DNA of 64,000 bases from an uncultured Chloroflexia bacterium (GCA_963751075.1 CAVVTE010000011.1:291177-355176); one strand, 5' to 3'. Positions 1 to 64,000 are shown, counted from the first letter of the stretch. The notes: generated from the letters alone by a model not told the origin. Numbers and translations: made by a program.

Positions 1-85
1 CTGAAGTCCTTCCACGTGAAAACCGAACGGTGAGCGGGCGCGGCGCTCATCGGCGTCCGACCATTGGTCCCGCATCCAGACCATT

Positions 86-1123
86 TCACTGGGTCTTACG
101 CGGATCGAGCGCATCGCGCAGGCCATCGCCGATGTAGTTGATCGATAGCACGGTCAGGAAGATCATCGTTCCCGGAAAAATAGCCTCATGCGGTGCGATC
201 TCGAACCGATCTTTCGCCTCGTAGAGCATGCTGCCCCACGTCGGGATGTCGGACGGGAAGCCGAGACCAAGGAACGAGAGAGCCGACTCGGTGATGATGG
301 CCGCGCCGACCCCGAGGGTAGCCGCGACGATGATCGGACTCATCACATTCGGCAGGATGTGCCGGAACATCTGGGACGCCCGGGAAGAGCCCATAGATTC
401 GGCCGCTTCCACAAACTCCTTCTGCTTGGTTGACAGAAAGCTCGCTCGGACAAGGCGGGATGTCGGCATCCAGTTGAGTAGGCCGATCACCAGGACGATC
501 AACACGAAGATGCCGGTCACTCCGCTCCCTGTGCGTCTCTGGAAAAAGTCATAGAACGCCTGCTTGTACAGGAAGCTGATTACCAGTAAGAGCGGCACTT
601 GTGGCAGGGAGATGAACAGATCCGTCAGGCGCATCAGCAACGTATCCGCTAGCCCACCGAAAAACCCCGAGATGGCCCCGATTGCGGTCCCCAACAGGAT
701 GGCCACAAGAGCCGCAACGATCCCGACGGCGAGCGAGATTCGGCCACCCCACAGCATCCGCGCCAGCATGTCCCGTCCAAGAGAGTCGGTCCCGAAGGGA
801 TGTTCCCAGGATACGCTGCTCCCGCTGACGGAGAAATCGATCTCATCGATCGCTTGCGGGTAGAGAGGGGACCAGATGAACGTCGCCAGCAACATGAACA
901 AGAAGAGCGCCAGTCCTGCCATTGCCAGCTTGTGCTTGCGGAACTGGCGCCAGGCGTCGCCCCACAGTGAGCGCTGCTCCTTTACCAGCAGCCGAGAATC
1001 AATGGTGCGAAGCGCGGGCAACGCGTAGTCAGGAGCGGTCGCCGTGGCGGATTGTGTTGCCCCCCTCCTGCCGAGTGTTCCCGGGGGAGCGGACTTGAGA
1101 TTGATATCAACACCCTGCGTCAT
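86..1123 (-). CDS. ABC transporter permease, peptide/nickel family (DppC/OppC-type)
   Basis: ORF 86..1231. Polytopic membrane protein with family-typical C-terminus INYIGDGLRDALDPR. Start placed at ATG 1123 because GGAGG lies 6 nt upstream; the extra 36 codons of the long ORF are Arg/Gly-rich and look non-coding. Confidence 0.85.
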   Translation of the reverse strand: MTQGVDINLKSAPPGTLGRRGATQSATATAPDYALPALRTIDSRLLVKEQRSLWGDAWRQFRKHKLAMAGLALFLFMLLATFIWSPLYPQAIDEIDFSVSGSSVSWEHPFGTDSLGRDMLARMLWGGRISLAVGIVAALVAILLGTAIGAISGFFGGLADTLLMRLTDLFISLPQVPLLLVISFLYKQAFYDFFQRRTGSGVTGIFVLIVLVIGLLNWMPTSRLVRASFLSTKQKEFVEAAESMGSSRASQMFRHILPNVMSPIIVAATLGVGAAIITESALSFLGLGFPSDIPTWGSMLYEAKDRFEIAPHEAIFPGTMIFLTVLSINYIGDGLRDALDPRKTQ

Positions 1124-1255
1124 ACCTGGCCTCCGCAACCGAGAGAGGTACGGCGGTGAACATCCGCTCGACCAGTAGCCGCCCGTGACTGTCCCAGCCA
1201 TTTCCCGCGCATCGCGATGCGTTGTACCCACCGCACGTGCACGAACGAATGGCGC

Positions 1256-2200
1256 CTACGAGTAGCGTATGCGCGGATCGAGAACGGCATAGAGAATGTC
1301 CGCGATGACGTTGAAGAGCACGACAAGGACGGCGATGCCAAAGGTGATCGCCATGACGACAGGGACATCCTTGCTGTAGATGCCGTCGATGAGCGCGCGA
1401 CCGATACCCGGAATGCGAAAGATCTGCTCGGTGATGATCGCGCCACCGAAAATCTCCGGCACTTGCAGCGCGAGCACGGTCACCACTGGAATCAATGCAT
1501 TGCGCATCGCGTGCAGGACGACCACCGACTGCTCCCGTAGGCCCTTCGCTCGGGCCGTGCGGACGTAATCCTGGCTAATCGTCTCCAGCATCGACGCGCG
1601 GACAAAACGCATGAGCTGCGCCGCGCCGGCAAGACCAAGCACCATGATCGGCATGATGGACTGTTTCACATTCGGCAAGAAACCACTGACCTCGGAGTCG
1701 TAGACAAATGGCAACCAACCAAGAGAGACACTGAAAATGAGAATTAACAGAATGCCTGAGAAGAACGTAGGAATGCTGAAGCCCAGAAAGGCGAACGTCG
1801 TCGCGACCTGGTCGAAGAGCGAATATTGCTTGATCGCGGATAACACACCGATTGGCACCGCTACGAGGATGCTAAGTAACAACGCCGAACCGGAGATTGC
1901 GAGCGTGGTGGGCAGTCGAGACAGGACATAATCGCGGACCGGAATCTTGGCGGAATAGGACTGCAGCCAATCTCCTTGCACGTACGCTGATGCCCAGCGC
2001 AAATACTGGACGTGGATCGGATCGTCGAGTCCCATCGTCTCGCGGATACGTGCGCGCAACTCGGGCGGAACATTGGGGTTGTTGGCGAAACCAGACAGCG
2101 GATCGCCGGGCGCCAGCGCAAGGATGGCATACACAACCATGCTGATAGCGATGAGCGTGAAAATCGAGATGATCGTGCGGCGAATCAGGTAACGTCCCAA
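1256..2200 (-). CDS. ABC transporter permease, peptide/nickel family (DppB/OppB-type)
   Basis: 314-aa ORF with LAPGDPL near the N-terminus, YVRTARAKGL loop and C-terminal LYAVLDPRIRY. TTG start with GGAGGA 6 nt upstream. Confidence 0.9.
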   Translation of the reverse strand: MGRYLIRRTIISIFTLIAISMVVYAILALAPGDPLSGFANNPNVPPELRARIRETMGLDDPIHVQYLRWASAYVQGDWLQSYSAKIPVRDYVLSRLPTTLAISGSALLLSILVAVPIGVLSAIKQYSLFDQVATTFAFLGFSIPTFFSGILLILIFSVSLGWLPFVYDSEVSGFLPNVKQSIMPIMVLGLAGAAQLMRFVRASMLETISQDYVRTARAKGLREQSVVVLHAMRNALIPVVTVLALQVPEIFGGAIITEQIFRIPGIGRALIDGIYSKDVPVVMAITFGIAVLVVLFNVIADILYAVLDPRIRYS

Positions 2201-2446
2201 CCCGCGTCCTCCATGTCAGCCGTTTCGAGTTTGGACACTCCAGCGATTGCCGGTATTGGTCGGTACTGTCAGCAATGAGTCGGCGCTCCCCGGCTGATGC
2301 GTCGGAGCGCCGGGGCGCGTCACTCGTCAGGAAGATTCGGCTGATGGTACGGCCCGCATTTAGGAGCGTCAAGCAATAGTCTTCGCATACACGGCGAATG
2401 GGCGTCAACGGTCGACTGCGTTCTGTGGTAGGATGCGGGGTCGCGT

Positions 2447-3181: not shown

Positions 3182-3193
3182 AGACTGGGACCA

Positions 3194-5048: not shown

Positions 5049-5074
5049 CGCATACTCCTTGGGGGTATCGGTCG

Positions 5075-5839: not shown

Positions 5840-6119
5840 GCATTATCCTCGATAGCTTTACCTAACAGCGTTAGCTCACTCTATTATCGTATGGTATGCA
5901 GAGGGTGCTGTCAAGCGGGCAAAGAGATGCCCGGCCGGGTGAACTCCTGATCATGACGCGAGTCGACGGACCATCTGTGCCGGGAAAGAAACCCAAAAGA
6001 TCTGAAAAGAGCCTTTCTCCAGAGCCGCCGTCAGAAGGACTGTCGATTCGTGGTGCCCGGCAGGGACGTGGGCCGGTGTTGAAAGCGTCGCGTACTTGCT
6101 GCTGGGCAGCTGACGAGCG

Positions 6120-7021
6120 GTGGAGAAGGGGTACGACCGCCACACGCAAGGAATGACCATGGACACCGAGCCGATGGTGCGCGACGAGATGGTCACGCTG
6201 GACGGCCTGCGCTTCCACTATTGCGACTGGGAGAACCCCTCAGCCCCGACGGTGCTGCTGCTCCATGCCTTCACCAGCCATGCCCGGAGCTGGGACACCG
6301 TCGCCAGGGGTCTAGCCGGCCGCTTCCGGGTGCTAGCCCTGGACCTGCGTGGGCATGGGGAGTCGGCCTGGGCGCCGAGCTACCAGGAGCTGCGGCTGGT
6401 TGGCGACATAGCGGAGTTCGTCGACACGCTGGGGCTCGGCATCTTCTCCCTGGTCGGCTTCTCCATCGGCGGCTCGGCGGCCATCACCTTATGCCCAGCT
6501 CTACCCAGACCGGGTGGAGCGGCTGGTGGCATTTGAGTGCTTCACGGACCCGGATGTGCCCGAGGAGGCGCCCTACCGCCACACTCTGCTCGCCCATTTG
6601 CGCCTCGTCCGCTCGCTGCCCGAGACGTTCAACGCACCCGAGGAGGCCGTCGCGGCGTTTCGGCCACTCGCGCCGTACGCTGCTGAGGATGAACTGCGCC
6701 AGTGGACTCGGTGGCCTCAGGCAGGAGCCCAATGGTCCCTGGACGTGGCGCTACGACCCGATTTCTCGTGTCCCCGCCAGCACACCGCAACGCCTGAATG
6801 CGGCTCCGGATGTCCTGGCCCAGCGCCTGGCGGGCGTACGGTGCCCGACGCTGCCAGTAGCAGGAGCGGAGTCGTGGATGGTGGAGCCAACACAGCGCAT
6901 GCAGACGCTCAATCCGCGGGCGCTCAAGGTCACCGTCCCCCAGGCTGGGCATTGGGTGCCGCTGGACAACCCACGTGCCTTACTCTCGGCCGTGAGCCAA
7001 TTCCTCAGCGAGGAACCCTGA
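6120..7021 (+). pseudogene. Alpha/beta hydrolase, two frameshifts
   Basis: One homologous protein reads through three consecutive frames. Frame 0 runs to about 6489 (VLLLHAFTSHARSW, nucleophile elbow GFSIGGSAAIT). Frame 1 runs to about 6712 (YAQLYPDRVERLVAFECF). Frame 2 runs to 7021 (PNGPWTWRYDP ... QAGHWVPLDNP). Confidence 0.75.
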
Positions 7022-7451: not shown

Positions 7452-8444
7452 TGAATTGCACCCCAAACGCCTGACCATCGCCAAAGTCAACGTCTCCCCG
7501 GAGGGGACAGCACGCGAGTCGTTGCGGTAGGAGGTGCAGGCAATCGGACGCGGACGGGCGTTCGGCCGCGAGTTCAAGCTGGCGATGGTGCGGCAAGTCA
7601 TCAGTGGCGAGAAGCAACCGTCCAGTTCTGCCGCGAGCAGGGGACCGCTGAACGCTTGCTCCTGCGTTGGCGGCGCCATTACGAAGCGCACGGGGGGGCA
7701 CTCGCTCCGTGTCAGCGAACTGAGACGGAGTCCTTGAAACAGAGGGTCGGAGCTGGAGCGCTTGTGCGGCAAGCTCGCCCTCAAGAAATGCGGTCCCAAA
7801 AGGGGGCATAAGGCGGCCCCCCTCGCGGAGCGGCACGCGATGTTCACCCGAGCGCGACATGACCATGCGCGGCCGCCGGGGCGTCCGCTCTGCGATCTGC
7901 GCGTCGGGCAAGCTGGTACTACGAGCGCCCCAACACGCCGACCCAAGCCGAACGGGATGTCGCCCTGCGCGATGCCATCGAGCGGCTCGGCTGGAGTTCT
8001 CGCGTATGGCTACCGCCGGGTCACAAGGCGCTGGCCTGCGAGGGCTGGGCGGTCAACCACAAACGCGTGCTGCGACTGATGCGGCAGGAATCGTTGTTCT
8101 GCCAGCGCAAGCGGCGCTTCGTCGCCACTGCCGACTCGGGGCACGCGCTGGGCACGTACCCAAACCACAGCGGCGACTACGTCGCGAAGTTGGAAGCGAC
8201 CAGGGCGCGGATCAGCATGATGGCCGTGGGCACCCCATTCGAGAACGCCAACGCCGAGAGCTTCTTCAAGACGTTCAAGCGCGAGAAGGTGTTTTGCAGG
8301 AGTAGCGGGCGTTTGTTGAGGCCGAGGCCAAGCCCGGCCGCTTCATTGATGACGTCTACAATCCCAAGCGGGTGCATGCGAGCCTGGGACAGCTGCCGCC
8401 GGCAGCGTGCGAGGCGCGTCGGGCGATCAGGTCGGAGGGTGAGC
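7452..8444 (+). mobile_element. Decayed IS3-family insertion sequence (transposase pseudogene with internal deletion)
   Basis: OrfA-like RAFGREFKLAMVRQVISGEK, OrfB-like EGWAVNHKRVLRLMRQESL and C-terminal NAESFFKTFKREKV / FIDDVYNPKRVHASLG lie in several frames. Most of the DDE core is absent. The left end TGAATTGCACCCC resembles IS3/IS150-type termini. Confidence 0.7.
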
Positions 8445-16521: not shown

Positions 16522-17446
16522 TCATCGTGGCGATGCTGTTGTCACGCTACTTGGTTCATCGACCCGGTTGAGGAAGTCGAGGAGCACGGCGCGGTAGTGC
16601 TCGTAATCTTCCAGATGCACAGCATGCCCACATCCGGGGAAGATCTGCAGCTCCGATCCTGGAATGCCCGCCTGTAGCGTTCGCGCGCACGATGGGTGAA
16701 CTTCGTCGAATTCACCGACCGTGATCAGCGTCGGCGTGGAGATCTCGCCGAGCCGGTCAGTGCGGTCCCACTCCAGCAGGTTTCCGGTACAGGTGAACTC
16801 GTTCGGGCCCCACATGGTGTTATAGACCGGCGCCGCCATGTGCTTTATTGCCCGTGCCAGCGGTTCCGGGTAGGGCCAGACCCGGCAAAAGTTCCGGCGA
16901 TACAGGGTCTCCAGTGCCGCAAGATAGTCGGGGTGCTGGTAGTCCTGCGCCGCCTCATAGCGCGCCATGGTTGCTTGGGTCTCGGGTGGGAGCTCCTGTC
17001 TCCATGCGTTCATGCCGGTGACGCACTCTGTGGTGCTGGCCGCTCCCGAGGCGAGCGAGAGACTGCGCAGATGCTCGCCGTGGTGTAGCGCGTATTCGAT
17101 CGCCAGGAACGCGCCCCAGGACTGTCCCAACAAGTGCATCAGCCCGAGATCGAGCGCCTGGCGAACTTTTTCGACCTCGGCGACGAAGCGCGGCACTTGC
17201 CAGAGCGTGATGTCGTCCGGTTTGTCGGAGCGCCAGGAGCCGAGCTGATCGTAGCGAACGACGCGAAATCCCTCCTCGGCAAGATCGAGAAAGGGAGACA
17301 AGTCCTCGGAGTTTCCGCCGGGTCCGCCATGGAGCAAAAGCAGCGTCCGTTCGCCCTCGCCGGCGCTCTCATACCAGACCCGGCCGGCGTCCGACGTCGA
17401 TATATCCCTGCTGTTCGTGGCATATCGGAACTGTGGATTCCTTCAT
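16522..17446 (-). pseudogene. Proline iminopeptidase-family alpha/beta hydrolase with a 5' frameshift
   Basis: The main ORF 16522..17337 begins inside LLLLHGGPGG and has GQSWGA. The natural N-terminus MKESTVPICHEQQGYIDVG starts at ATG 17446 in another frame and joins DAGRVWYESAGEGERTLLLLHGGPGG after a 1-nt indel near 17390. Confidence 0.7.
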
Positions 17447-17509
17447 GTAAAGGCGGGTCTCGCGGTGTAGTGCAGGACCCGACGATGGTTCCGGTATGAC
17501 TCAGGCCGG

Positions 17510-19192
17510 TTATGCGTCCGCTGGCTTCAGGTCCCGCGTGAACGCATCCCAGTACCAAAGTGCGGTGATCTGGTAGCCGGTTATGCCCCTGGTCATCGGC
17601 ATATACCACTTGTAGTGTTCAAAGAAAATCCAGGGTTGGTCGGCGGAGATCAGTTTCTGTGCGTCGACGAGCATCTGCCGCCGTTTCTCCTCATCCAGTT
17701 CGACCTCGGAATCATCCAACAACCCGTCGACGTCGGGGTTGTTGTAGTAGGCGTGGTTGTTCTGCGGTGGGAAGTTCTGCGAGTGGAAAAGAGGGATCAG
17801 GTTACCAGCAGCGTCCGGGAAGTCGGAGGCCCACTGGTACGACATCATTCCCTCATAATCGCCAGCCTGCTGAAGGCTGATCCAGTCGGCGTAAGGCATA
17901 CTGAACGATCTCAACCTCGATGTTCAACTCTTTGAGGGCTTCCTGGACAGCGATTGCCTGCGGGACCCATACATCATTCGGCGCGATCACGGATAACTTC
18001 GTCGAAAATCCATCCGGCATGGCTCGACTCCGCCATCAGTTGCTTGGCCTTGTCGAGGTCATAGGGAACCGGTTCCAACTGGCTTGCGGCGCTGCCCGGC
18101 ATCTCGGTGGGACGGAGGTGTTGCGGGCGTGAATGCCGGTGTCCCGAACGATGTTGTCCATGATCGCTTCAATGTCGACTGCATAGTTGACTGCCTGACG
18201 GACTTTGATGTCGTCGAACGGAGGTCTGTCGGTGCGCAGCACTATGCAGTTGATGGTATAGCCGACGATCTCCTGGAAGTCGACGTTCTCGAATCCCATG
18301 ACCGCGTCGACCTGGTCCGCGGGCACTTGCGTCATGGCTTGATTTCGTCATTCTTCTGGGCCGGTGACCCGCGTGGTTCCTTCCTCGACGATCTTGAGAT
18401 GATCACTCTGTCGAAGTAGGGTTTGCCTTCCTGCCAGTACTTCGTGTTCTTCTCGAGCACGATCTCGCTGCCGGCATGCCCAATTGACGAACTTGTACGG
18501 GCCGGTGCCGATCGGGTTGCGAAGCAGGTCGAGTCCGTACGTGCTCGATAGCCGCCTTCGGGATGACATGGCCCGCAGTTGTGGCGGGCACGTACTGGAA
18601 GAGGGCACTCGGGGTCTTGAGCCTGATCGTCATAGTCTGATCGTCGATCCGCTCGACCGTCGCCTCAGGGCCGTCGTACATCCAAGCCAGCGGGCCAGCT
18701 ACCTCCGGGTCTCGGACCCGGGCAATCGACGCGATGACATCGTCGACAGTTACCGGCGAGCCGTCGTGAGAAAATGATGCCGTCGCGAAGAGTGTAGATG
18801 TAAGTCAGCTCATCGGGGTGATCCCACTTTTCCGCCAATAATGGCTGGAGACCGCCCTCGGCGTCGAAAATCAGCAAGCCCTCGGAGATTTGGCAAACCA
18901 CAGGGTTGGCAGTGAAGTCGTAGGACAGGGCGGGCTCCAGGCCGCGGACGTCGCCCTCGAGGCCAAAGGTGAACGTATCGTCTTCTACCTGAACCGCAGA
19001 AAGCCCGGGCAGAAAGCGCATTCCCCACTGCCTCGGCTGGTCCGCCGAGTGCGGAGTCAGTGTCGCGGCGCCAGCCGAACCAGCCGCCAGTTTCAGGAAA
19101 CCGCGCCGGTTGGTCCATGTCTGGCGCAACCCGGACAGATACCGTGCCATTTTGTGATCGAATTCGCGCCCGGGGTCTCGCCCTTCAGTCAC
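17510..19192 (-). pseudogene. ABC transporter substrate-binding protein, family 5 (peptide/nickel), heavily frameshifted
   Basis: The TAT-signal N-terminus (NRRGFLKLAAGSAGAATL) and successive SBP_bac_5-like segments (GTGPYKFVNW, RQAVNYAVD, PYDLDKAKQLM, C-terminal FFEHYKWYMPMTRGITGY) sit in alternating frames. At least 8 frame changes or stops by eye. Confidence 0.85.
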
Positions 19193-19345: not shown

Positions 19346-20119
19346 TCAACTACCTGGTGTCGTGATCACCATTCCATCCCAGGCGATCTCGATCCCAGCC
19401 GGGAGAAGCTTTTCGGCATCCGCATGGCTGGTTTCGTGGGAGAGGTGCACCAGGTATGTGCGCCGAGGCCGCACGACTCGCACCACCTCAACCGCTTCCG
19501 AGAAGCTGAGGTGCGTCGGGTGACTCCGCTCTCGCAATGCATTGAGCACGAGTACGTCCAGATCATGCAGGAGGTCGAGAGACGTGGGGGGAAGCTCCTT
19601 GGCATCAGTGATGTAGGCAAGATCGTCGAACCGGAAGCCACTGATCGGCAACCTTCCATGCAGGACAGGAACGGGGATGATCTGGTGACCAAAGAGGTCG
19701 AAGGGGCCGTCGATCTCGTGCAGGATGAGGTCGGGTTTGCCACCGTAGAAGGGGAACATGTCGGTAAAGGTGTACGCGTACCGCTCGCGCAGCATCGAGC
19801 TCGTGTGGGGATTGGCATAGACCGGAATGTGATGACCTTGTAGCTCATTGAAGCGCCGCAGATCGTCGAAGCCTCCGGTATGGTCGGCATGGGCATGGGT
19901 CATGAGCACGGCGTCCACCCGGCGCATACCGTTGGCGATCGCCTGCGAACGGAGTTCGGTAGCGGTATCGATCAGGAGATTGTGCTCGCCGAGACGGACG
20001 ACTGCCGAGGTGCGCGTGCGCCGGTCACGGGGGTCAGAAGAGCGACAGACCGCGCAATCACAACCGATCACCGGAATGCCGTTTGACGTTCCGGTGCCGA
20101 GAAGAGTTATCTCAGGCAT
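19346..20119 (-). CDS. MBL-fold metallo-hydrolase (PhnP-like)
   Basis: 257 aa. LGTGTSNGIPVIGCDCAVC and the metal motif THAHADH. Confidence 0.85.
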   Translation of the reverse strand: MPEITLLGTGTSNGIPVIGCDCAVCRSSDPRDRRTRTSAVVRLGEHNLLIDTATELRSQAIANGMRRVDAVLMTHAHADHTGGFDDLRRFNELQGHHIPVYANPHTSSMLRERYAYTFTDMFPFYGGKPDLILHEIDGPFDLFGHQIIPVPVLHGRLPISGFRFDDLAYITDAKELPPTSLDLLHDLDVLVLNALRERSHPTHLSFSEAVEVVRVVRPRRTYLVHLSHETSHADAEKLLPAGIEIAWDGMVITTPGS

Positions 20120-20193
20120 ACTCGATCGAGTATAGCGCCGCCGTCGCCGCCCGATTGCGGATCGCTGGGATGCTGCGTGAGGAGCAGAAAGGC

Positions 20194-21169
20194 ATGTCGA
20201 GGGTGCCTCCAGCCTCCAGTTCCATCGTCGATGCCGTTGGACACACTCCAGCTATCTGGCTCGATCGCCTCACCGTGGGGTTACCAGGCCGCGTCTTGCT
20301 GAAACTCGAATCGATGAATCCCGGTGGCAGCATCAAGGACCGTGCGGCTCTGCAGTGCCTGCGCGATGCGGAGCATGACGGCCGGTTGCGGCCTGGAATG
20401 GCCGTGGTCGAGCTGACCAGCGGCAACATGGGCATCGGTTTGGCCGTCGCCTGTGCCGTGATGGGATATCGCATGATTGCCGTGATGAGCGAGGGTAATA
20501 GCCCCGAGCGGCGGCAGCTCCTCGCGGCGTACGGAGCGGAGATCGAGCTTGTTCCGCAGGCGCCCGGCTCGCGACCGGGTCAGGTCAGCGGGGAGGATCT
20601 CGCGCTCGTCGAGATACGGACCTCGGCGCTCGTGGATGAGCTGAACGCGTGGCGTCCCGATCAGTTCAACAATCCATCGAATCCGCGCGCTCATGAGCTT
20701 GGGCACGGGACCGGAGCTCTGGGAGCAGGCCGGGGGCGAACTCGGTGCGTTCGTCGCCATCGTCGGAACCGGGGGCACATTTGTCGGCATCGCGAGGGCG
20801 CTCAAGGCACGAGATTCAGCGATCCGCTGTCTGGCGGTGGAGCCAGCCGGCGCACAACCCCTGGCGGGTGTAGGCGTCACCAATGCCTCCCACAAGCTCC
20901 AGGGTGCCGGCTACGCGCTGATCCCGCCACAGTGGGACTCGACGCTCTGTGACGGGACGATCCCGATCGGGGACGACGAAGCGGTCAGCGTGGCGCGGGA
21001 CCTGGCCCGCCGCGAGGGAATCCTTGCCGGATTCTCCACCGGGGCGAATGTCGCGGCAGCGCTAAAGCTGGCCGCGACCGCGCCCCCGGGATTCACCGTC
21101 GCCACCGTCGCCTGCGACACCGGTACGCGTTATCTGAGCACCGATCTCTTCGTCACTGACTCGACGTAA
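20194..21169 (+). pseudogene. Cysteine synthase (CysK/CysM family), one frameshift
   Basis: N-terminal part reads LKLESMNPGGSIKDRAA ... TSGNMGIGLA up to NPSNPRAHE. It then switches frame near 20705 into TGPELWEQ ... GTGGTFVGI ... GFSTGAN. Confidence 0.8.
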
Positions 21170-34297: not shown

Positions 34298-34493
34298 CTC
34301 ATTCGGCTCCTGATTCGTGCGGTGGTCGAACCGCATGGTGCACAGTTCCGCCGCGGGCCCAGAGATTGGCCGGTCGGTAGGGATTGCCCTTCATGCATCG
34401 TGCCACGTGGTCCGCAGCCGTCGGGACATTGGCTGGGTTGGTTGCATTGCCCAGATAGTCGACGATCACCCTCGAGTCTACGGGGGAGATTGC

Positions 34494-42009: not shown

Positions 42010-43156
42010 ATGAAGCGCAGCACGGAGCGAATGCTTACGACCCACACCGGTAGCTTGCCGCGCCCTCCCGACCTCCTCGCGGAACTACTGGGTCCGGGCG
42101 GGTCAATTTTCGAGACCGAAGTACGCGATCGGGTGCGGACGGCGGTGCGTGAGGTCGTTCAAAAACAGGTGGCGGCCGGGATCGACATCGTCAGCGACGG
42201 CGAGATCGGCAAACCCGGGTTCGCACACTACGTCAAGGATCGGCTGACCGGCTTTCAGGGTGCGGTCGCGCCCAGACCGTTTGCTCCGCGAGACTTGCTC
42301 GACTTCCCCGAAGTCGCGCGGCATCTCTTCGTGTCTGATGGGAAAGAGCTCCCGCGGCCCCCGATGCCGACCAACGACGGCCCCATCGCCTACGACGGTC
42401 GCGAACAACTTGTGATGGATCTGGACAATTTCTCGGCTGCGATCGAAGGCTTGCCCATGCGAAGGCTTCCTTCCCGCTGTATCTCCAGGCTGCGTCGCCA
42501 TGCTCATGGGCACCACCTATTACCCCAGCCGCCGGGACTTCCTGTTTGCGCTGGCGGATGCGCTGCGCGAGGAGTACCAGGCGATCGTCGACCGCGGCTT
42601 CGTCCTGCAGATCGACTGCCCGGATCTTGCCCTGGGCTACCACCTGGAGTTCGTAGATCGGCCCATCTCGGAGTTTCGAGCCGTCATTGAGCTCCATGTC
42701 GAGGTCCTGAACCACGCGCTAGCCGGAATAGATCCCGATTGGATCCGGGTCCACGTCTGTTGGGGCAACTACCCTGGCCCGCACCACCACGATATAGCCC
42801 TGGCCGACATTCTCGACATCATCTACAACGTAAATGCAACCGGTCTTTCGATCGAGGGCGCAAACCCCCGCCATGAGCACGAGTGGGCGGTGTTTGAGCA
42901 ACTTCCGTTGCCCGCTGGCAAGATCTTGATCCCGGGCGTGATTGATACCTGTACCAACTGCATCGAGCACCCGGAGACGGTCGCGCAGCGGATCGAGCGG
43001 TACGCGCGGGTCGTCGGTCGCGAGCAGGTGATCGCCGGTACCGACTGCGGATTCGCGACCATCGCCGGGAGATCAGCCGTCGCGCCTGACGTCGCCTACG
43101 CCAAGCTGGCCAGCCTCGCGGAAGGTGCGCGGCTGGCCAGTGCCAGGCTTTGGTAA
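42010..43156 (+). pseudogene. Cobalamin-independent methionine synthase-like (MetE C-terminal family), one frameshift
   Basis: THTGSLPRP ... DIVSDGEIGK in the first frame. After AAIEGLP the sequence continues as EGFLPAVSPGCVAMLM ... HVCWGNY ... GTDCGF in the +1 frame, shifting near 42460. Confidence 0.8.
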
Positions 43157-48425: not shown

Positions 48426-48646
48426 CCGACCACCCTCGTCTTCAAATGATCCCCTCGGACTCATCACCGATCGGGCAGCACGAGCCCGTCGCGGCTCGAC
48501 GCGCCGCAGCGCAACGAGGCATCCAGGTGGAGAACGGCGTCACGATTCGGCAGCTCCTCGAGGGATAACGCGCCGGTCGTCTGTCACGGCGTGATCTCCT
48601 GATCCAGGTCCGTTCCCCTGAAATCACAAAATCCTCTTTCAAAATA

Positions 48647-48759: not shown

Positions 48760-50202
48760 ATGATGGCTGCAGACGGCGCGGACAACGAGCCGGACCAGGT
48801 GCCGGACGCCTTCTTGGAGGCCGTGCGCCCGGAGCACCGCGCGGACCTGCGCGCCCTCGTGCAAACCGCGCAAGAGCCGCCGCCGAACAATGCGGCGTCC
48901 GATCGGCGCGCCGACCGGACCCCGGATGACGACTCCGGCGCTGGCGAAGGTAGCCCGCGCTCCCCCAGGTCGACCCGCGAACCGTTCCCTGCCCTCAACC
49001 CGGCCCAGTCGGCGCGCGTCACCAACGCGTTGATCGTCGCCGCTGAACGATTGGCGGGAGTCCCCATCGCTCACAGCCTCATCCAGTCCCCGGACGCACC
49101 GTCCCGGACTACGGAGCTGCCGGGCACGACCGGCATGACCGGCCGTCAGTCGCTGGGAAACGCCGTCCGCCTCAGTGACGTCACCCCGGAGCGAATCCGC
49201 TGGCTCTGGCCGGGTCGTGTCCCCGCCGGTAAGATCACCGTCCTCGATGGCGATCCCGGTCTCGGCAAGAGCACGCTTCTCTGCGAGGTCGCCGCCCGCA
49301 TCACTCGTGGCGACCCCCTCCCCGGCGGCGAACCGGCTGCCCCCCGGGGCGTCCTCCTCTTGTCTGCCGAGGACGACCTCTCGACACCATCCGCCCTCGC
49401 ATCGATGCCGCCGGCGGCGATCCCGACCGCATCGGCACCCTCCTCGCCATTCCGGATCGCACCGAAACCGGACGGCCCTTCTCCATCCCTGGCGACCTCC
49501 CCATTCTCGATGCCGTCGTTGAACGGCTCGATGCTGCCCTCGTCATCGTCGACCCGCTCGTCGCCTATCTGCGCCCCGGCATCAGCGCCAATCGGGACCA
49601 GGATGTCCGCCGGGCCTTGGCCGCCCTCAAGGCCTCGGCTCGAGCGCACCGGCGCCGCCATCGTCGTCGTTCGCCATCTCAACAAGTCGGCGCAGACGAA
49701 CCCGCTCTATCGCGGCCTCGGCAGCATCGGTATCATCGGCGCCGCCCGCTGTGCCCTGCTCCTGGCCGCCGATCCCGACGATGCCGACCGCCGCATCCTT
49801 GCCGTCAGCAAAGGCAATCTCGCTCGTCCTCCCGCCGCCCTCGCCTTCCGCCTGGATGATGTTCCCGGCACCGATGTCGCGCGTATCGTCTGGGAAGGAG
49901 AGAGTCCCTGGACGGCTGGCGAGCTCCTCGGCCGCCTGCCGGCCGAGGAGGGTGATGAGTCGCGCTCCGCCGTCGATGACGCCCGTGCCTGGCTGCGCGA
50001 AGCCCTGGCGGCCGGACCGCGTCCCGCGAGTGAGCTGCGCCGGGAATCCGCCGCCCGCGGGATTGGCCTGTCCACCCTCTATGCGGCGCGCAAGGCCGAG
50101 GGCATCGCGACCGCGAAGGAGCACATCGCTAGGGGCCGCTGGCTGTGGATGCTCCAGGACAACTCAGGTGGACGTGAAGATGCGGTCCCTTCCGGCTCGT
50201 GA
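48760..50202 (+). pseudogene. RecA-fold AAA ATPase (RepA / AAA_25-like, mobile-element type) with two compensating frameshifts
   Basis: GGAGGGG-N5-ATG. ERIRWLWPGRVPAGKITVLDGDPGLGKSTL, with Walker A. Between about 49382 and 49641 the conserved sequence (DTIRPRIDAAGGDPDRIG ... LVIVDPLVAYL ... DVRRALAALKA) is in the +1 frame, then returns to ERTGAAIVVVRHLNKS. Confidence 0.75.
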
Positions 50203-51537: not shown

Positions 51538-52027
51538 GTGGGCGCCGATCTTGCCCGCCGTGGTCTCCGCACGGCCATTGTTCTGCCTGTGGCCTTGGTC
51601 GCCGTCTTCTACGGCCTTCGCCTCGCTCCAAGGGACCCGACAGGCGGCGTGCTCAGCCCGACTGTGCTGGAGGAGGTGCGCGCGGAGTACCGCGAGCGTC
51701 TTGGTCTCAATGAGCAGATCCTGGTCCAATACGGCGTGTACGTGAAAAATCTCGCCTGAGGAGACCTGGGCACGACACTCATTACCGGCAAGTCGATCGG
51801 CAAGTAGCTTGGATTCTATGGCTGCAACAGCCTGGTGCTCGGTCTCGCCGCGACCATCCTTATCTCCCCTTCCGAGCCTCGGGGTGATGATCGCCGAGGG
51901 GAGGAACTACATGCTGCAAAGCCACTGGGTGACCACCGTCCCGGGCGTTGCTATCGTGGCCGTCGTCCTGGGTTTGAACCTCCTCGGCGATGGGTTGCGC
52001 GACGTGCTCGATCCGAGACTGAAGTAG
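51538..52027 (+). pseudogene. Chimeric remnant of peptide ABC permease genes (DppB N-terminus fused to DppC C-terminus)
   Basis: N-terminus ...LRLAPRDPTGG...GLNEQILVQYGVYVKNLA, in-frame TGA, then GDLGTTL. A second stop follows, then the C-terminal GVMIAEGRNYML...LNLLGDGLRDVLDPRLK. More than 1 kb of the expected sequence is missing. Confidence 0.75.
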
Positions 52028-55580: not shown

Positions 55581-56808
55581 TTGACATCACCTGATTCAAG
55601 CGCGGAGATGAAGGGGCCCGCGGGCCTCGGGTTCTCCAGCCGCGCTGTCCACGTGGGAGAGCGTGGGCCGCGCCCCGACTTTACTCCAACCACCACACCG
55701 ATCTACCCCGCCACCGCCTTTGTCTACGACGACACCGATACACTCGACGCGGTATTCGGGAACGAGCGTCAAGGTTACGTATACACTCGCTATGCCAACC
55801 CGACTACGAGCGCGCTGGAAGCGGCGATCGCATCGCTCGAAGGTACGGAGGACGCCGTGGCGTTTGCGTCCGGAATGGGCGCCGTATATGCCGCAATGCT
55901 CCTCGACGCGCGCGCCGGGCAGTGCATCGTGGCCGCGCCTGATGTCTACGGCGCTACCTACGCCATTCTCCACCGGCTCCTGCCCACGCTTGGCATCGAG
56001 ACCACCTTTGTCGACCTCCGCGATCTCCAGCAGCTCGAGCGGGTGGTGGAGACCTCCCGCCCGGCGCTGATCTATGCCGAGACGATTTCGAATCCACTGC
56101 TGCGCGTCGCCGATCTCCGCGAGGTCACGACTCTCGCTCATCGCCATGGCGCTCGGGTCGCGGTCGATAACACCTTCGCCACACCCTGGTTGGTCAACCC
56201 CGCCGCGCTCGGCGTGGATTCCGTTATCCACTCGACCACCAAGTACCTTGGGGGACACGGCGACGTCACCGGTGGTGTGATTGCCACCACCGCCGAGCGC
56301 GGAGCGGAGCTGCGCGAGATCAACAAGCTGATTGGATCGGTCGCCGGTCCGTTCGAGTCATGGTTGACGCTGCGCGGATTGAAAACTCTTCCCCTGCGAA
56401 TGAAGCAGCAGAGCGATAACGCGCGTGCCGTGGCCGACTGGCTCGTCGGCGACTCCCGGGTCTCGCGGGTCAATTACCCCGGCCTGCAGCATCTCGGCGG
56501 CGCCGGAGGCGATGTTCAACCGGCCTGAGCGCGGTGGGATGATCTCGTTCGAGGTTCGCGACGCCGCACGGGACGACATTTTCCGCTTCTTCGAGGCGCT
56601 CACGCTCATCGTGCCGGCCACGACGCTCGGGGATGTCTACAGTCTCGTGCTCTATCCGACGATCTCCTCTCATCGGGCTGTGCCCGCGGAAGAGCGGGCG
56701 AAAATCGGAATCTCGGACGGGCTCGTGCGTTTGTCGGTCGGAATCGAGGATGTCGAAGACATCATCGCCGACCTGGACCGAGCATTGGCCGCGGCAGACC
56801 GGGGCTAG
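55581..56808 (+). pseudogene. PLP-dependent Cys/Met metabolism enzyme (cystathionine gamma-synthase / O-acylhomoserine sulfhydrylase-like), one frameshift
   Basis: YTRYANPT ... DNTFATP ... HSTTKYLGGHGD in frame 1 to VNYPGLQH. It then reads PEAMFNRPERGGMISFEV ... SLGDV.. ... RLSVGIEDVEDIIADL in another frame, shifting near 56495. Confidence 0.85.
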
Positions 56809-56838: not shown

Positions 56839-58033
56839 ATGGCAATCGCAATGGCAACGGATGCGAAAGTCGATACCTTGCGGGCACAGTTGCCCGCGGT
56901 GCAGACCACCGGCTATTTCAATGCCGGTTCCAATGGCCCGATTCCGAGAATCTCCTACGAAGCTGCCGACATGACCGCCCGCGCGCGAGCTCGAGCAGGG
57001 ACGGATCATTCCCGGGACATTTCGCGACAACCGCGAACGCAACCGGGGTGTAGCCGCACTGGCCGCCGGAATATTCGGCGCCGATCCTGACGAGATAGCC
57101 CTCACCCACAGCGCTACCGAAGGACTTTGCATGGCCCTCATGGGGCTAACGTGGGATCCGGGTGATGAAATCGTTACCACCCTGGAAGAGCATCCCGGGC
57201 TCCTGATGCCGCTCGCGCTCCTCGCTCGACGATTTGGCGTTGTTACCCGGTACGCTGATATTGGTGACGGCTCGTCGGGTGTAGTCGAGGCTCTGGCGAG
57301 TCAGATCACCTCTCGCACGCGTCTCATCGCTCTGTCGCACGTTCTCTGGTCGACGGGCGCCGTGCTTCCGCTGCGCGACATCAGCGAGCTTGCCCGGCGC
57401 CATGAGCTCATGGTCGTGGTGGATGGAGCGCAATCCGCCGGCCAGGTGCCAGTGGATCTCCACGCGTTGGGCATTGATGCCTATGCGATGGCCGGCCAGA
57501 AATGGCTCTGCGGGCCGGAAGGGACCGGCCTGCTCTATATCCGCCGGGATCGATTTGCCGATATCGCACCGACCTACGCCCGCTACGGACAGTTCGAGCC
57601 GAGTGGCTACTTCATCCCCGCGAAGGGCGCAATGCGGTACGAGATCGGCGAGTTCTACCCTCCGGCGGTGGCCTCCCAGGAGGCAACGCTGCGCTGGCTG
57701 CGCGACGATGTCGGGTTCCAATGGGCGTACGATCGCATCGCTGGCCTGGGCGCCGACTTCCGTCGCCGGCTGACGGACATAGACGGAGTGACCGTGGTTA
57801 CCCCGAGCGAACCAATGGCGGGGTTGGTGAACTTCAATATCGCGGGTCTGCCTCCACAGGAGGTGGAGACCCGGCTCTTCGAGCGCGGCTACACCATTCG
57901 CTATGTGGAATCAGTGCCCTGCACGGTTTCGGCTCGAGCATCGCTGGGATGGTGGAACACCGAAGATGAGGTGGCGGGTCTCGCGGATGCGGTGGCGGAT
58001 CTCGCACGGGAAGCGCGTGTGCTGAGTGGGTGA
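56839..58033 (+). pseudogene. Class V aminotransferase / cysteine-desulfurase-like, one frameshift
   Basis: N-terminus TGYFNAGSNGPIPRISYEAADMT, then a frame change near 56980 into ARELEQGRIIPGTFRDN ... LTHSATEGL ... VDGAQSAGQVPVD ... AMAGQKWLCGPEGTG. Confidence 0.85.
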
Positions 58034-58970: not shown

Positions 58971-61626
58971 ATGATGGGCGAATTGCCGCGTGGCACCGTC
59001 ACCTTTCTCTTCACCGACGTCGAGAATAGCAGCGCCCTCTGGGAGCGTGACGGTGCGACGATGATGACCGCGCTTGCCCGGCACGTCTCCCTGTTGAGGG
59101 AAACCGTGGAGGCTCACGGTGGGTGTCCTCTTCAAGACCGTTGGGGACGGGACGCAATCTGCCTTTCCGACCGCTCCCGCCGCGCTGAATGCCGCCTGTG
59201 CCGCGCAGCGTGTGCTTCTCGCCGAGCAATGGCCGGACACGCTCGGCCCGTTGCGGTCCTGTATGGCGCTCCACGCTGGCGAGGCTGAACCGCGAGACGG
59301 CGACTACCTCGCCGCTCCACTCAACCGCCTGGCGCGGCTCCTGGGCATGGCCCGCGGTGGTCAGATCCTGGTTAGCGAGGCCGTCGAGCAACTTGCGCAG
59401 GATGGTCTCCCTGTGGGTGGGAGGCTTCAGGAGCTCGGCGAGATGCGCCTGCGCGACCTGAATCGCGCCGAGCGGGTGTTCGTTCTCGTCCACCCGGACC
59501 TTCCGGGCGATATCGCCCTACCATCCGCCTCAGAACAGCAAACCCGGCACTTTCCGCCATCCTTGACCCCGTTCGTCGGCCGCGACGATGAAATTTGCGC
59601 TATCGCGGCGCTGGTGGAGGCGCCGAATGTCCACCTCGTCACACTGACCGGACCCGGCGGCATCGGCAAGACGCGACTGGCCATCCAGGTTGGCGAGCGC
59701 CTGGCTTCGTCGTTCGTGGGAGGAGCGGTATTTGTCGATCTTGCGCCATTGCGTGACCCGGCACAGGTATTGCCGGCGATAGCCACCGCGCTCGGTCTTC
59801 GCGAAGCAACCGGCCGCTCGCTCGTCAACCAGATCCACGGCTTTCTCGCGGAGCGGGAGACTTTGCTGATCCTCGACAACTTCGAGCACCTGCTCGGCTC
59901 GGCGACCATCATAGCCAATCTTCTCGGCGAATCGGACGTCGAGCTCCTCGTCACCAGTCGCGCGCCCCTGCGGCTTCAAGGCGAGCATGAGTACCCGGTG
60001 CCAACCTTACGGCTTCCGAGCGACGCGGAACGAAATGACGCCACTGCGCTTGCGATGAACGAGGCGGTCGCGCTCTTCGTCGATCGCGCCCAGGCGGTTC
60101 GCCCGGATTTCGTGTTGACCGACGCCAACGCCTCCGTGATTGCCGATATCTGCGCGCGGCTTGATGGATTGCCGCTGGCCATCGAGCTCGCCGCGGCCCG
60201 GGTCAAGGTCCTGCCTCCCGCGGCGTTGCTAAGCCGGTTGGAGCGACGGTTGCCATTACTCACGGGGGGCCGGCGTGATGCCCCGGAGCGGCAAAGAACG
60301 CTGCGTGACACCATCGCCTGGAGTCACGGTCTGCTTGCTCCCGAGGAATGCACGCTCTTCCGGCGGCTTGGGGTCTTTGTCGGCGGGTGGACGCTCGAGG
60401 CTGCCGAGGGGATCGTCAATCCGGACGAGGACCTCGACGTTCTGGGAGGTCTCACGACGTTAGTGGAGATGAGTCTTGTCCGCCTCGATGAGTCCGGCGC
60501 AGAGCCGCGCTTCGGCATGTTGGAGACTATCCGCGAGTTTGCCGTCGACCGGCTCAGTGAGGCAAACGAGGACGTCTCGATCCGCGAGCGCCACGCCGCC
60601 TTCTTTCTCGCCTTTGCTGAAGAGGCTGAACCAGAGCTCGTTCGCGCCAACCAGGTTGAATGGTTCGATCGGTTAAGCGCGGACGGCCCAAACATCACCG
60701 CCGTCCTCGGTTGGCTTCTTGAACAGAATCGGATAGAAGAGGGACTGCGGCTATGCGTTGCCATGCGGTTCTACTGGTTCCGGCGTGCGCCGTTCGGCGA
60801 GGGAAGCCGGTGGTTTTCGGCATTCCTGGAGAGACAAGTTCCCACAGTCGCGCCTCAAATCCGGGCCCGTGCGGTCGCCGCCGCCGGCACCTTCAATCAT
60901 TGGTTGGGCAACCTCGACAGGGCACGCGCGCTCTACGAGGAAGCACTTTCTCTGTTCCGAGAGGCCGTGGACCTGATTGGGGAGGCGCGACTCCTCCGGA
61001 ACCTCGCGAGTGTGTCGATCGACCTCGGCAAGCTGGACGAAGCTGAGACGCTTATTCACCAGAGTTGCGAGGTTGCCGAACGGAGTGGCAATCCCCGCAG
61101 TGTCGCCGACGCCATCGGACTGCGCGGAACGCTGGCGTTCGCCCAGGCGGATTATGAGCGCGCGGTGGCCGAGCTCAAGGACGCGAGCGAGCGCTACCGC
61201 GCCCTGGGAGACGTCGCGTCCCTCATGGACGCCACTGGAGACGCCGGGTACATGATGGCATTGCAGGGTGACGTTGCCGGAGCCGGCCGACTATTTGAAG
61301 AGTCTCTGAATCTGGCCGTTGAGCTCGGAGCGCGCGATCGGATCAGCTGGGCGCTTCTTGGCGCCGGGAACCTTGCGGCGAACACCGGTGAATCTGCACA
61401 GGCCGTTCGCCTGCTTGCCGCGGCCGACCTCATTCAGCGGTCCATGCAAGAGGATCTCAGGCCCAGTGTCGACAATATACAGAACCGAATCCTTGAGGAG
61501 CAGCGGCAGAGTCTTGGCGAGACCGCGTACCTGGCGGCCTGGGAAGAGGGTCGTGTCCTTCAGATGGAGCGGGCCGTGGCTGAGGCGCGAGCGGTTATCG
61601 CAACGCTCTCAGCGCGGGTTCGTTGA
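58971..61626 (+). pseudogene. Adenylate/guanylate-cyclase-domain / P-loop NTPase / TPR signal-transduction protein, one 5' frameshift
   Basis: MMGELPRGTVTFLFTDVENSSALWE ... EAHGG, then the +1 frame gives VLFKTVGDGTQSAF (shift near 59120). Walker A GPGGIGKTRLA, LILDNFEH, long C-terminal TPR-like repeats. Confidence 0.8.
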
Positions 61627-61723: not shown

Positions 61724-61751
61724 TTGACGGCGATCTCACATTCTATAGAAT
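61724..61751 (+). promoter_or_regulatory. Putative promoter of the GntR gene with an overlapping palindrome
   Basis: TTGACG (61724-61729), 16-nt spacer, TAGAAT (61746-61751). The 10-bp palindrome TTCTATAGAA (61741-61750) overlaps the -10 in an AT-rich island. Confidence 0.4.
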
Positions 61752-61795
61752 ATAGAACTCTTCCTCATCTTCCTATGCTTACGTCGGGGCGACCA

Positions 61796-62545
61796 ATGAT
61801 CGATCTGCCGCCGTTGAGCATTGATTCCTCGCGGTCCGAGCGGGTGTATCTCCGGCTGAAGGAGGCCATCACATCGGTGTCCCTTCGGCCTGGCTCCTCC
61901 CTCGGTGAGGCCGAAGTCGCCCGCCAACTGGGCGTGAGCACAACACCAGTGCGAGAAGCGTTGCAACGCCTCGGGCAGGATGGCCTGGGCGTCCTGAGCC
62001 GGTACCGTGGGGCGACGGTCGCCTAGATTACGGAAACGGATGTCCGGGAAATCTATGAGCTGCGAGATGCGTTCGAACCGATGGCCGCCACCTTGGCCGT
62101 GCCCGTGCTGATCGAGGAGGACATCGCGGAGATGGGCAGCGCCATCGCGCACGCCTCGTCGGCAATTACACGGGGCGAGTGGCGGGAGCTCAGCCATTGG
62201 AACCGGACCTTCCATGGCACCCTGATTCGCCGATGCCAGAACCGCCGTCTCCGGCGAGTATTGGAAACCCTGCAGGATCAAAACCGAATCATCGCCCTCC
62301 TGACATGGGAAGGACGCGGATACGATGAACAGGAGCATGACGAGCACACGATGATCCTGGAGGCCGCATCCCGGCGAGAGCCCGATCTCGCCGCCGAACA
62401 TTTGCGGCACCACATCGCCCGGTTTGGTCGTGACGTTGTGCGGATGTGGGAGCAGCGTTCCACCCATGGCGGACAGGAATCGCCGGGGAGTGCAACGCAA
62501 GTCGGGATGATGACGCTCTCAGAAAGAGAGGGCATTCGAGGATGA
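61796..62545 (+). pseudogene. GntR family regulator (FadR/FCD type) with an in-frame TAG
   Basis: HTH part ERVYLRLKEAI...GEAEVARQLGVSTTPVREALQRL ends at TAG 62024-62026. The FCD domain (ITETDVREIYELRDAFEP ... HDEHTMILEA) continues in the same frame. Confidence 0.8.
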
Positions 62546-63207
62546 GGAGCCGCGTGCCCGGGCGGTGGACCGATCTGGCTCAGGCATTCCGCGGCGTCAC
62601 TGTGACCACGGTTAGCCCCTTCGTTCCGGGTACGCTCGATCTCGACATCGCTGGCTTCGACGCGAATCTCCGGTTTCTGCGGGACTGTGGAGTGTTGGTC
62701 GTCGTCCCTGCCGGGAATACCGGCGAGGTCACGAGTCTGACTACCGACGAGATTGGCGTAATTGCCGAGCGAGCCGTCGCAACCGTCGGATCCCATGCCG
62801 CCGTGGTGCTCGGGGTTGATGGTGACGTGAGAACGACTACGCGCTGCTGTCCATGCCCAGCAAGCGGGCACGGACGGGATCATGATCCAAGACAAGAACC
62901 ACCCCACCCGTTCATGTCCGGCGACGGACTCGTCGCGTATTTGGAGGACTTACGCGCGGCGGTCAGGCCGGCGTTCAATGTCTCCGTCATCAAGCACGCT
63001 ATGGAACTGGTGGGACTTGCTGTTGGCCCGGTGCGTCCACCCCTTTCACCGGTTGACACAGCGACCGCAGCTGCGGTCGCGTCGATGATCCGCGCCTGGG
63101 AGGATGGGCTTGGGTGGTTCATGTCTGCTGGCGTAGCCGTCACTAGCGCACCACGATCCGTGCGCTCGATCCCACCGATAAGGGGAACGGAGGTCGATAT
63201 GGCGTGA
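62542..63207 (+). pseudogene. DapA/N-acetylneuraminate-lyase family remnant (frameshifted, internally shortened)
   Basis: N-terminus GVTVTTVSPF ... VVVPAGNTGEVTSLTTDE and C-terminus SVIKHAMELVGLAVGPVRPPLSP are recognisable. The middle (Lys active-site region) is missing or out of frame. ATGA overlap with the GntR stop. Confidence 0.6.
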
Positions 63208-63275
63208 CTGCAAACTTCCGAAACTGGAATCAGGTGCACAGAGGCTAACGAAAACTTTCTAACATGGAGGACTTC

Positions 63276-64000
63276 AATGAAACGGCAACTTCCTCGTTTG
63301 TCACGTCGATCGTTGCTCGGGGCTGGATTCGGGGCCGTAACTGCTGCCACGATGCGGCTCCCCGGCGTTGGAACTGCGGTTCGGGCCCAGGAAACGACGC
63401 ACCTGGACTTCCATATCTGGCAGTATGGCGTCGAAACCGTCCAAGACAACATCCGACTTTTTGAGGAACTTTACCCCGACGTGACCGTTGCTCTGAGTGA
63501 TGTCTCATGGAATGCCTACCACGAGGCCACGGTGAACCGCCTTCGCTCGAAGACCCCGACCGATGTGCTCTACAACGGTGGAGACTGGCTTGAGGAGTTT
63601 GCGACTGCGGGCTGGGTCGTTCCTCTGGACCAGCACTTCGATTGGGTCGCAGGCTACCAGGACAAAGTGTTCGACTTCGCGTGGCAGGATATGGTCTTCA
63701 ACGATCAGGTCTACGGGTTGCCGTACTACGCTGACACGATCACCTTCATGTACAACGAGAAGATCTTGCAGGACGCGGGCATCTCCGCGCCTCCGGAGAC
63801 GTGGGAAGAGGTGACCGAGCAGTCCCTCGCCCTGAAGGGCAACGGGATGGAGTCCCCGTTCCTGTACGTACTGGCTCAGGACCTGCCAACCGTCTCCGAA
63901 ACCTTTGTCAGCACGGTTTTCGGCCGCGGGGGTGAGCTCATCGATGAGAACGATGATCCCCTGTGGACCGACCCGGAGAGCCCCGCCTATCAGCAGTTCA
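63276..64000 (+). CDS. ABC transporter substrate-binding protein, family 1 (sugar), 3'-truncated by the window edge
   Basis: GGAGGA 5 nt upstream of ATG 63276. TAT signal SRRSLLGAGFGAVTAA. The frame stays open to 64000 by manual translation (...VYGLPYYADTITFMYNEKIL...). It is absent from the ORF track, presumably because it has no stop. Confidence 0.85.

Follow-up and report, generated by a model that had tools for sequence, protein, structure and literature searches.

Does a stretch of bacterial DNA in which about a quarter of the genes are interrupted record a genome in decay, or a sequence that was put together imperfectly? The question is raised by 64,000 nucleotides (nt) from an uncultured Chloroflexia bacterium (GCA_963751075.1, CAVVTE010000011.1:291177-355176), here called the window, for which about twenty disrupted genes had been reported from the sequence alone. 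This original prediction favoured real pseudogenisation and named assembly error as the other option. The dense interruption of genes is present in the sequence as given: 17-18 of about 60 genes are interrupted, by about 24 small insertions or deletions (indels), three in-frame stops and three to four large deletions. From comparison with assembled sequences of relatives, we consider it quite likely that most of this is an assembly artefact lying over a handful of ordinary gene remnants. The genes with small indels are probably intact in the organism itself, and genuine genome decay accounts for a minority of the lesions, at four or five loci.

Results

Census of interrupted genes

Split genes were found by Pfam scans of stop-free open reading frame (ORF) fragments. 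Lesions were typed against intact orthologs with a purpose-written frameshift-tolerant protein-to-DNA aligner and by three-frame reading. Intact orthologs came from 90%-identity protein clusters, from a scan of JGI metagenomes and from further look-ups of syntenic short contigs (contigs of relatives are numbered L, single proteins P). The clusters hold intact short-contig orthologs of the acyl-CoA dehydrogenase (ACAD; 408 amino acids), the proline iminopeptidase (PIP; 300 amino acids) and the GntR regulator (249 amino acids). Intact syntenic relatives are available for the cysteine synthase (PALP; L084 and L086-L088), the CGS-like enzyme (L083) and the substrate-binding protein gene (SBP; L084 and L166), and the cupredoxin, LbH, thiolase, ECH and FixC genes are intact in L167 and L168. 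The 80 loci of a thiolase-anchored scan were useful only for ACAD and the cupredoxin gene, and the JGI scan gave no locus for the class V aminotransferase (ATV), the adenylate-cyclase regulator or the MetE-like gene among the matches listed.

Pfam fragments and frameshift-aware alignments together bear out 17-18 of the roughly twenty disrupted genes that had been proposed (Table 1). The genes that had been listed as carrying single-nucleotide frameshifts were listed correctly, with Pfam coordinates split over frames and alignments in agreement. In-frame stops are present in GntR and in the DppB remnant, and large internal deletions in the IS3 transposase, the DppB/DppC chimera and the DapA-like gene, all as predicted; the long neighbouring genes that had been called clean are intact. 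The statement that ORF-based annotation of this contig will be misleading holds under either explanation.

Related long contigs carry private sets of indels, and short contigs are clean

Two long contigs that are syntenic with parts of the window show the same syndrome at other places. L165 (ENA ERZ25039586 contig_11738, 116 kb, with a Flye-style name) is syntenic with window positions 1-22 kb at ~77% DNA identity. Its single-base insertions number at least 21, with deletions practically absent, and are found in genes for DppB (2), DppC, DppF, GT4, MBL (2), another DppC (3), SBP (2), PALP (6) and PIP (3). None of these lesions lies at a window site, and many fall in genes that are intact in the window. 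L164 (JGI Ga0456421_06514, 45.7 kb) is syntenic with window positions 44.5-61.6 kb and has at least 25 1-nt indels, mostly deletions, in genes for ARH (3), CGS, ATV, a deacetylase (2), the regulator (at least 2) and a sugar permease (13). At the positions of the window's CGS, ATV and regulator lesions, L164 has no lesion, and the deletion in its CGS gene, 1 nt long, is its own, 25 codons downstream of the window's site. The 13 indels of the L164 permease (939-2009) are packed into 1 kb, and the corrected gene is 87% identical to the intact gene of the window. The one-sided insertion signature of L165 may identify a particular basecaller and polisher combination.

In contrast, ~25 short contigs of relatives or of the same species (~60 kb; L001, L002, L083-L092, L163 and L166-L174) have full-length ORFs throughout, and control alignments with the same aligner revealed no frameshifts in short contigs. 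Among them are contigs named in the MEGAHIT style (k141) and JGI contigs whose names have 7-8 digits. At every frameshift site tested, the orthologs are read in a single frame. Since three long contigs from three organisms each carry a private set of 1-nt indels in conserved genes and the short contigs are clean, these results point to a technical cause. Assemblies from Nanopore reads alone are known to contain indels that break up gene predictions, and polishing with short reads is needed for bins with less than about 40-fold coverage (PMC9262707). Nanopore-associated errors have also been described in soil metagenome-assembled genomes (MAGs) of low coverage, for which Flye had been used with a single round of Medaka (PMC12313526).

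The same comparisons bear on the idea that the extra bases are genuine in this Thermomicrobiales-like soil lineage and are bypassed, either through widespread +1 frameshifting on the ribosome or through transcript-level correction. Lesions that are mostly +1, in otherwise conserved genes, occur both in the window and independently in L165, as such recoding would have it. However, the sites differ between the window, L164 and L165, L164 has mostly deletions, and in most cases the original frame runs on past the shift for dozens of codons without a stop. Nor is a slippery motif shared, the best k-mers losing significance after correction, and short-read contigs of close relatives carry the same genes, at 80-96% identity, without such insertions. 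We regard recoding as barely credible.

A substrate-binding protein gene with ten indels is otherwise conserved

The most heavily affected gene of the window encodes a substrate-binding protein of the SBP_bac_5 family, whose Pfam matches are scattered over at least five fragments. At least eight lesions had been predicted in it; its alignment with the L166 ortholog (88% nucleotide identity) is broken by ten indels of 1-2 nt and by no other gap, eight of them being insertions and two deletions, so that the earlier count was slightly low. The gene has no in-frame stop in 495 codons, no indel of a multiple of three nucleotides and no longer deletion. The corrected protein is full length, is 84% identical to its best homolog (P0072) and covers 99-100% of more than 100 homologs. 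Nucleotide differences from the ortholog fall 36, 28 and 103 times at codon positions 1, 2 and 3. The ratio of nonsynonymous to synonymous substitution rates (dN/dS) is 0.16 (range 0.13-0.16), compared to 0.085-0.135 in intact neighbours, with power limited by a dS of 0.38; against L084 the ratio is saturated (dS 1.2-1.8) and uninformative. For SBP, the dN/dS comparison that had been proposed as a check on the broken genes did not reveal the rise expected of a genuine pseudogene.

By these comparisons, the SBP gene is not a decayed gene, because a neutral period long enough to accumulate ten indels should also have brought stops and substitutions independent of codon position; at dS 0.38, such a test has only moderate strength. 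That lesions cluster in certain genes had been taken as a sign of pseudogenisation, but it does not serve as one here: the cluster consists solely of 1-2-nt indels in a conserved, stop-free gene, and the L164 permease has a cluster of the same kind, which suggests that such clusters belong to the same syndrome. Poor local consensus would place many errors close together in this way. Alternatively, co-occurring strains or paralogous reads may have been merged into one consensus, which would explain the SBP cluster. The clusters themselves (10 indels in 1.7 kb in SBP, 13 in 1 kb in the L164 permease) are consistent with such a collapse, as are the presence in public metagenomes of several strains of the species at 98-99% identity and of SBP_bac_5 paralogs in the window and in relatives. 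The sequence does not separate collapse from low-coverage error, so it amounts to a sub-variant of consensus error, and as a separate explanation we find it very improbable.

Twelve genes carry one or two small indels and no further damage

Twelve further genes are interrupted by one or two small indels with no other damage. In six of them (PALP, CGS, ACAD, PIP, the regulator and ATV), the lesion is a single extra base, with no other difference in kind from orthologs, no stops and no indels of a multiple of three; amino-acid identity after correction is 81-95%. The PALP profile is matched at 3-143 and 145-295 in two frames, and the CGS-like profile at 3-282 and 296-380, likewise split over frames. 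For ACAD, the N and M domains lie in one frame and the C domain in another. Both ACAD fragments belong to a 373-member cluster, in which nine intact 408-amino-acid orthologs are present among the 15 members listed, and the corrected protein is identical to P0024 at 389 of 408 residues. The PIP lesion is seen in the alignment and in the raw sequence, and its intact orthologs lie on short JGI and ENA contigs. The N-terminus of ATV is absent from the main frame. With its N-terminus corrected, the regulator aligns at 100% coverage and 81-87% identity to orthologs that have the cyclase and NB-ARC domains in one protein.

The other six genes gave a similar picture. Three-frame reading places the SDR lesion, both lesions of the alpha/beta hydrolase, the MetE-like lesion and the second lesion of the RepA-like ATPase in the +1 class. 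The lesions of LbH and the cupredoxin protein, by alignment, and the first RepA-like lesion, by three-frame reading, are in the -1/+2 class. The N-terminal 174 amino acids of SDR align without lesion to the L167 ortholog, and intact orthologs of LbH (179 amino acids) and of the triple-cupredoxin protein (550 amino acids) are present in both L167 and L168. In the hydrolase, Abhydrolase_1 is matched at 1-86 in the first frame only and the protein goes on in the next two frames; its lesions were typed by three-frame reading, without an ortholog. The RepA-like ATPase matches AAA_25 at 14-83 in one frame and at 85-180 in another before returning to the first; no ortholog above 90% identity was found in the protein collection, and its lesion types also come from three-frame reading. 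The MetE-like protein matches its profile at 2-76 and 144-312 in different frames. A 16-nt duplication (CGAAGGCTT twice, 16 nt apart) was considered as the MetE-like lesion and set aside, as the longer protein can be placed gap-free in a distant PDB alignment; a single extra base is favoured, without certainty.

Two of these loci have further features. The cupredoxin gene encodes three tandem domains, acidic low-complexity linkers and a C-terminal domain of ~190 amino acids without a Pfam match, and relatives keep it as a 550-amino-acid protein between the ACAD and thiolase genes. P0002, an 887-amino-acid fusion of acyl-CoA dehydrogenase and GMC oxidoreductase, is 66-74% identical to the window ACAD in the main tblastn segments.

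Table 1. Interrupted and remnant genes of the window. Positions are counted from its first nucleotide; extra and missing bases are relative to the uninterrupted reading.
Feature	Position	Strand	Lesion
SBP_bac_5 substrate-binding protein	17513..19190	-	10 small indels, perhaps 12; extra bases at ~17900, 18019, 18361, 18401 (2 nt), 18478, 18543, 18769 and 19016; missing bases at ~18105 and 18338
Alpha/beta hydrolase	6114..7018	+	Two +1 changes, ~6497 (T to TT) and ~6745
Proline iminopeptidase (PIP)	16525..17447	-	One extra base, ~17389; first ~12 codons cut off
Cysteine synthase (PALP)	20110..21166	+	One extra base, ~20698-20703 (GG to GGG)
SDR	29059..29797	-	One extra base, ~29143; true C-terminus (...LVAFLCSPDLTFSTGAVYDISGGRATY) in next frame
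LbH (hexapeptide-repeat) protein	30750..31288	-	-1/+2 frame change, ~30888
Triple-cupredoxin protein	32676..34336	-	-1/+2 change, ~33384, inside low-complexity (CAA)n linker
Acyl-CoA dehydrogenase (ACAD)	34497..35721	-	One extra base, 34975-34977 (GG to GGG)
MetE-like (Meth_synt_2)	42010..43153	+	+1 change, ~42455-42461; lesion type less certain than elsewhere
RepA-like AAA_25 ATPase	48760..50199	+	Two compensating changes, -1/+2 at ~49381 and +1 at ~49645
CGS-like Cys/Met-metabolism pyridoxal phosphate (PLP) enzyme	55581..56805	+	One extra base, ~56505
Class V aminotransferase (ATV)	56839..58030	+	One extra base, ~56983, within CGCGCG run
Adenylate-cyclase/NB-ARC/TPR regulator	58971..61626	+	One extra base, ~59121 (GG to GGG)
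GntR/FCD regulator	61796..62545	+	TAG at 62024-62026, between winged helix-turn-helix and FCD domains
DapA-like gene	62530..63207	+	~110 central codons gone, including catalytic-lysine region
DppB/DppC fusion	51538..52024	+	DppB codons 1-109 joined to last 46 codons of DppC
Stops in DppB remnant	51757-51759; 51805-51807		TGA; TAG
SBP_bac_5 stub	48527..48637	+	First 37 codons; complete gene in L164 (tblastn); RepA-like gene follows in window
IS3-family OrfB remnant	7863..8300	+	One open frame into TPR protein (to 8984)

Direction and sequence context of the small indels

Taken over the 13 indel genes, ~18 lesions are of the +1 class and ~6 of the -1/+2 class (binomial p = 0.011), and all are 1-2 nt long. 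Real bacterial pseudogenes are reportedly biased towards deletion, with a spread of indel lengths (Mira, Ochman and Moran 2001). The excess of insertions in the window, ~3:1, is the opposite of that bias. The 13 genes show neither the deletion bias nor the spread of indel lengths that mark pseudogenes, and large deletions do appear in the four to five remnants described below.

Several of the insertions extend GG to GGG or T to TT. The motif TGGGC/GCCCA occurs near 6 of the 24 sites (0.8 expected) and GGCAT/ATGCC near 5 of the 24 (0.9 expected). These tests, in which one site was misplaced (SDR at 29075 instead of 29143), gave no significant lesion-site motif of the kind that would hint at methylation-related basecalling: with 24 sites, neither enrichment stayed significant once the number of k-mers was corrected for. 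The TGGGC enrichment may simply reflect the GG to GGG insertions. Assembly error, which had been offered as the second explanation for the isolated 1-nt indels, fits the ~24 small indels better than decay does; most of them do not seem to lie in the long homopolymers at which such errors had been expected, as 7 of the 11 estimated frameshift intervals inspected have no run of four or more.

Genuine remnants and the GntR stop

A separate group of loci probably consists of real remnants: the DapA-like gene, the DppB/DppC fusion, the SBP stub and the IS3 remnant. The DapA-like ORF matches the Pfam DHDPS profile at 2-77 plus a second short stretch only, and it aligns to the solved dihydrodipicolinate synthase-type (DHDPS) structure 3d0c over residues 9-136 and then 247-301. 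The 2.2-kb JGI contig L163 matches window positions 60869-63065 at 98.0% identity with zero gaps, which places it in the same species. The structure of its DapA-like ORF is identical, and several of the strain differences there change an amino acid. On this evidence, the DapA-like gene is a genuine remnant.

The DppB/DppC fusion lacks ~1.3 kb relative to L164, in which a SBP_bac_5 gene is followed by DppB and DppC genes with a 129-amino-acid ORF between them. In the window, positions 48438-52032 hold the RepA-like AAA_25 gene and ~1.3 kb of unassigned sequence in place of the complete SBP_bac_5 gene of L164. The arrangement resembles what would be left if mobile DNA had entered a dpp-like operon and a deletion had come later. 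Further on (52157-54384), the window has a FAD-dependent monooxygenase and an APH-like kinase that are absent from the syntenic region of L164; no relative of the kinase above 90% identity was found in the protein collection.

The IS3 OrfB remnant matches HTH_21 at 27-60 of 60 and retains a stub of rve_3 (2-29 of 67) followed by TPR_5, the rve integrase core being deleted. It lies in a ~6-kb segment (3181-9132) that is absent from L165, in which the flanking LysM and L25 genes are separated by ~300 nt. Judging from this comparison, the segment was probably acquired as an island. It contains ORFs without assignment, a cupin, a VOC/glyoxalase protein, a TetR regulator, the alpha/beta hydrolase, the IS3 remnant and the TPR protein.

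The stop in the GntR gene is a G-to-T change at a codon that reads GAG in L163, and the gene is otherwise 96% identical to orthologs. Of the lesions that can be compared with this independent same-species assembly (L163 only), the DapA-like remnant is common to both and the GntR stop is not. The GntR nonsense codon may be either a real strain polymorphism or a substitution error.

These loci are also an argument that most or all of the lesions are real, that is, that relaxed selection or early genome reduction has lately cost the organism ~17 of its accessory genes through frameshifts, nonsense mutations and deletions. True remnants do share the window with the small indels, namely the DapA-like deletion held in common with the same-species contig, the DppB/DppC fusion with its two stops, the IS3 remnant and the SBP stub. 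In GntR, the lesion is a substitution rather than an indel; the broken genes are all accessory metabolic, transport or regulatory genes, the single ribosomal protein gene of the window being intact; and the lesions seem to avoid long homopolymers. However, twelve genes carry nothing but one or two 1-nt indels, and SBP combines ten indels with a strong third-position bias and with no stop, no indel of a multiple of three and no longer deletion. The ~3:1 ratio of insertions to deletions is the reverse of the bias known from pseudogenes, the same syndrome appears elsewhere on two related long contigs (one with insertions only) when ~25 short contigs are clean, and no continuum joins the one-lesion genes to the remnants. 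We consider decay on this scale unlikely. The preference for pseudogenisation in the original prediction was therefore correct in part: the deletions and the stops of the DppB remnant do mark real remnants, and the ~24 small indels are better accounted for by assembly error.

Setting of the window

The G+C content is 59-68% across 2-kb windows of the 64-kb stretch. Scans of the window for tRNA genes and with Rfam gave no match, and a megablast search of 25 kb against plasmids gave none. The genes resemble those of Thermomicrobiales and Chloroflexota. The nearest thiolase, 65% identical, is from a Sphaerobacteraceae MAG (one genome per species, among the matches listed), and the named homologs of SBP and of the regulator are from Thermomicrobiales, Nitrolancea and Chloroflexia. 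The same-species short-read contig L002 (GCA_035641935.1, DASQTK010001011.1) corresponds to window positions 10864-13667 at 98.9% identity. Its MAG is labelled Gemmatimonadales, yet the homologs of the window's genes all point to Thermomicrobiales/Chloroflexota, and L002 may have been placed in the wrong bin. The fragment proteins of the window itself are on record from a single contig only (380,476 bp; NCBI and ENA).

Discussion

The ~24 indels of 1-2 nt in 13 genes most likely arose as consensus errors when a metagenome was assembled from long reads, probably by a pipeline of the Nanopore/Flye type, the organism being a low-coverage soil bacterium resembling Thermomicrobiales. The consensus caller would have added a base, less often lost one, and often have done so within two or three identical bases. 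The four to five remaining loci are probably true leftovers of ordinary accessory-genome turnover. The size of the 380,476-bp source contig and the lack of a short-read twin suggest that it is a long-read assembly, and we infer that, at the indel sites, the reads would disagree with its consensus.

Several points weigh against this interpretation. The evidence comes from assembled sequences, and the long-read origin of the source contig, L164 and L165 is deduced from size and naming. We found no same-species short-read contig over any 1-2-nt lesion, and for most of the genes nothing above 90% identity in public collections. As no same-species short contig spans the small-indel sites, a very recent, strain-specific burst of frameshifts is formally conceivable; such a burst would have to combine an insertion bias, an absence of other decay and mimicry by two long-contig relatives. 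The absence of a homopolymer run of four or more from most of the estimated frameshift intervals inspected is unlike the classic Nanopore error pattern. In addition, dS against the available orthologs is high (0.4-1.7), so that a brief, recent relaxation of selection would be invisible in dN/dS, and the dN of SBP is somewhat above that of its neighbours. Finally, the window also holds undoubted true remnants, which means that some gene decay occurs in this genome.

Compared to known cases, the window most resembles long-read-only assemblies, in which isolated 1-nt indels split conserved genes (IDEEL test; Sereika et al. 2022, PMC9262707; PMC12313526). As in those, the lesions occur on long contigs, short-read contigs of relatives being free of them, and the corrected proteins are full length. 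It departs from that norm in that its lesions are mostly insertions in runs of 1-3 bases rather than deletions in long homopolymers, and in their strong clustering in one gene; here the technology is deduced. With Mycobacterium leprae, Sodalis glossinidius and Shigella, the window shares the interruption of about a quarter of the genes, the joint occurrence of frameshifts, stops and deletions, and an IS remnant. Those genomes differ in having a deletion bias, many stops, longer deletions, lesions shared among strains and raised dN/dS, whereas the window has mostly single-base insertions without other decay, next to four to five true remnants. The latter match ordinary remnants of accessory regions with no difference of note: a RepA-interrupted dpp-like operon with a 1.3-kb deletion, an IS3 element in a 6-kb island and a DapA-like gene with an internal deletion.

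The case serves mainly as a warning: at face value, the contig would point to decay in a quarter of the genes of a soil bacterium. A pseudogene caller or a metabolic reconstruction would wrongly drop the cysteine synthase, ACAD, the peptide-binding protein, several PLP enzymes and a large regulator, and ORF calls on this contig are not trustworthy without polishing. A practical test that needs no reads lies in four signs taken together: lesions that are indels only, an insertion bias, a like syndrome at other sites on related long contigs, and clean short contigs. The few real remnants represent the ordinary turnover of an accessory genome.

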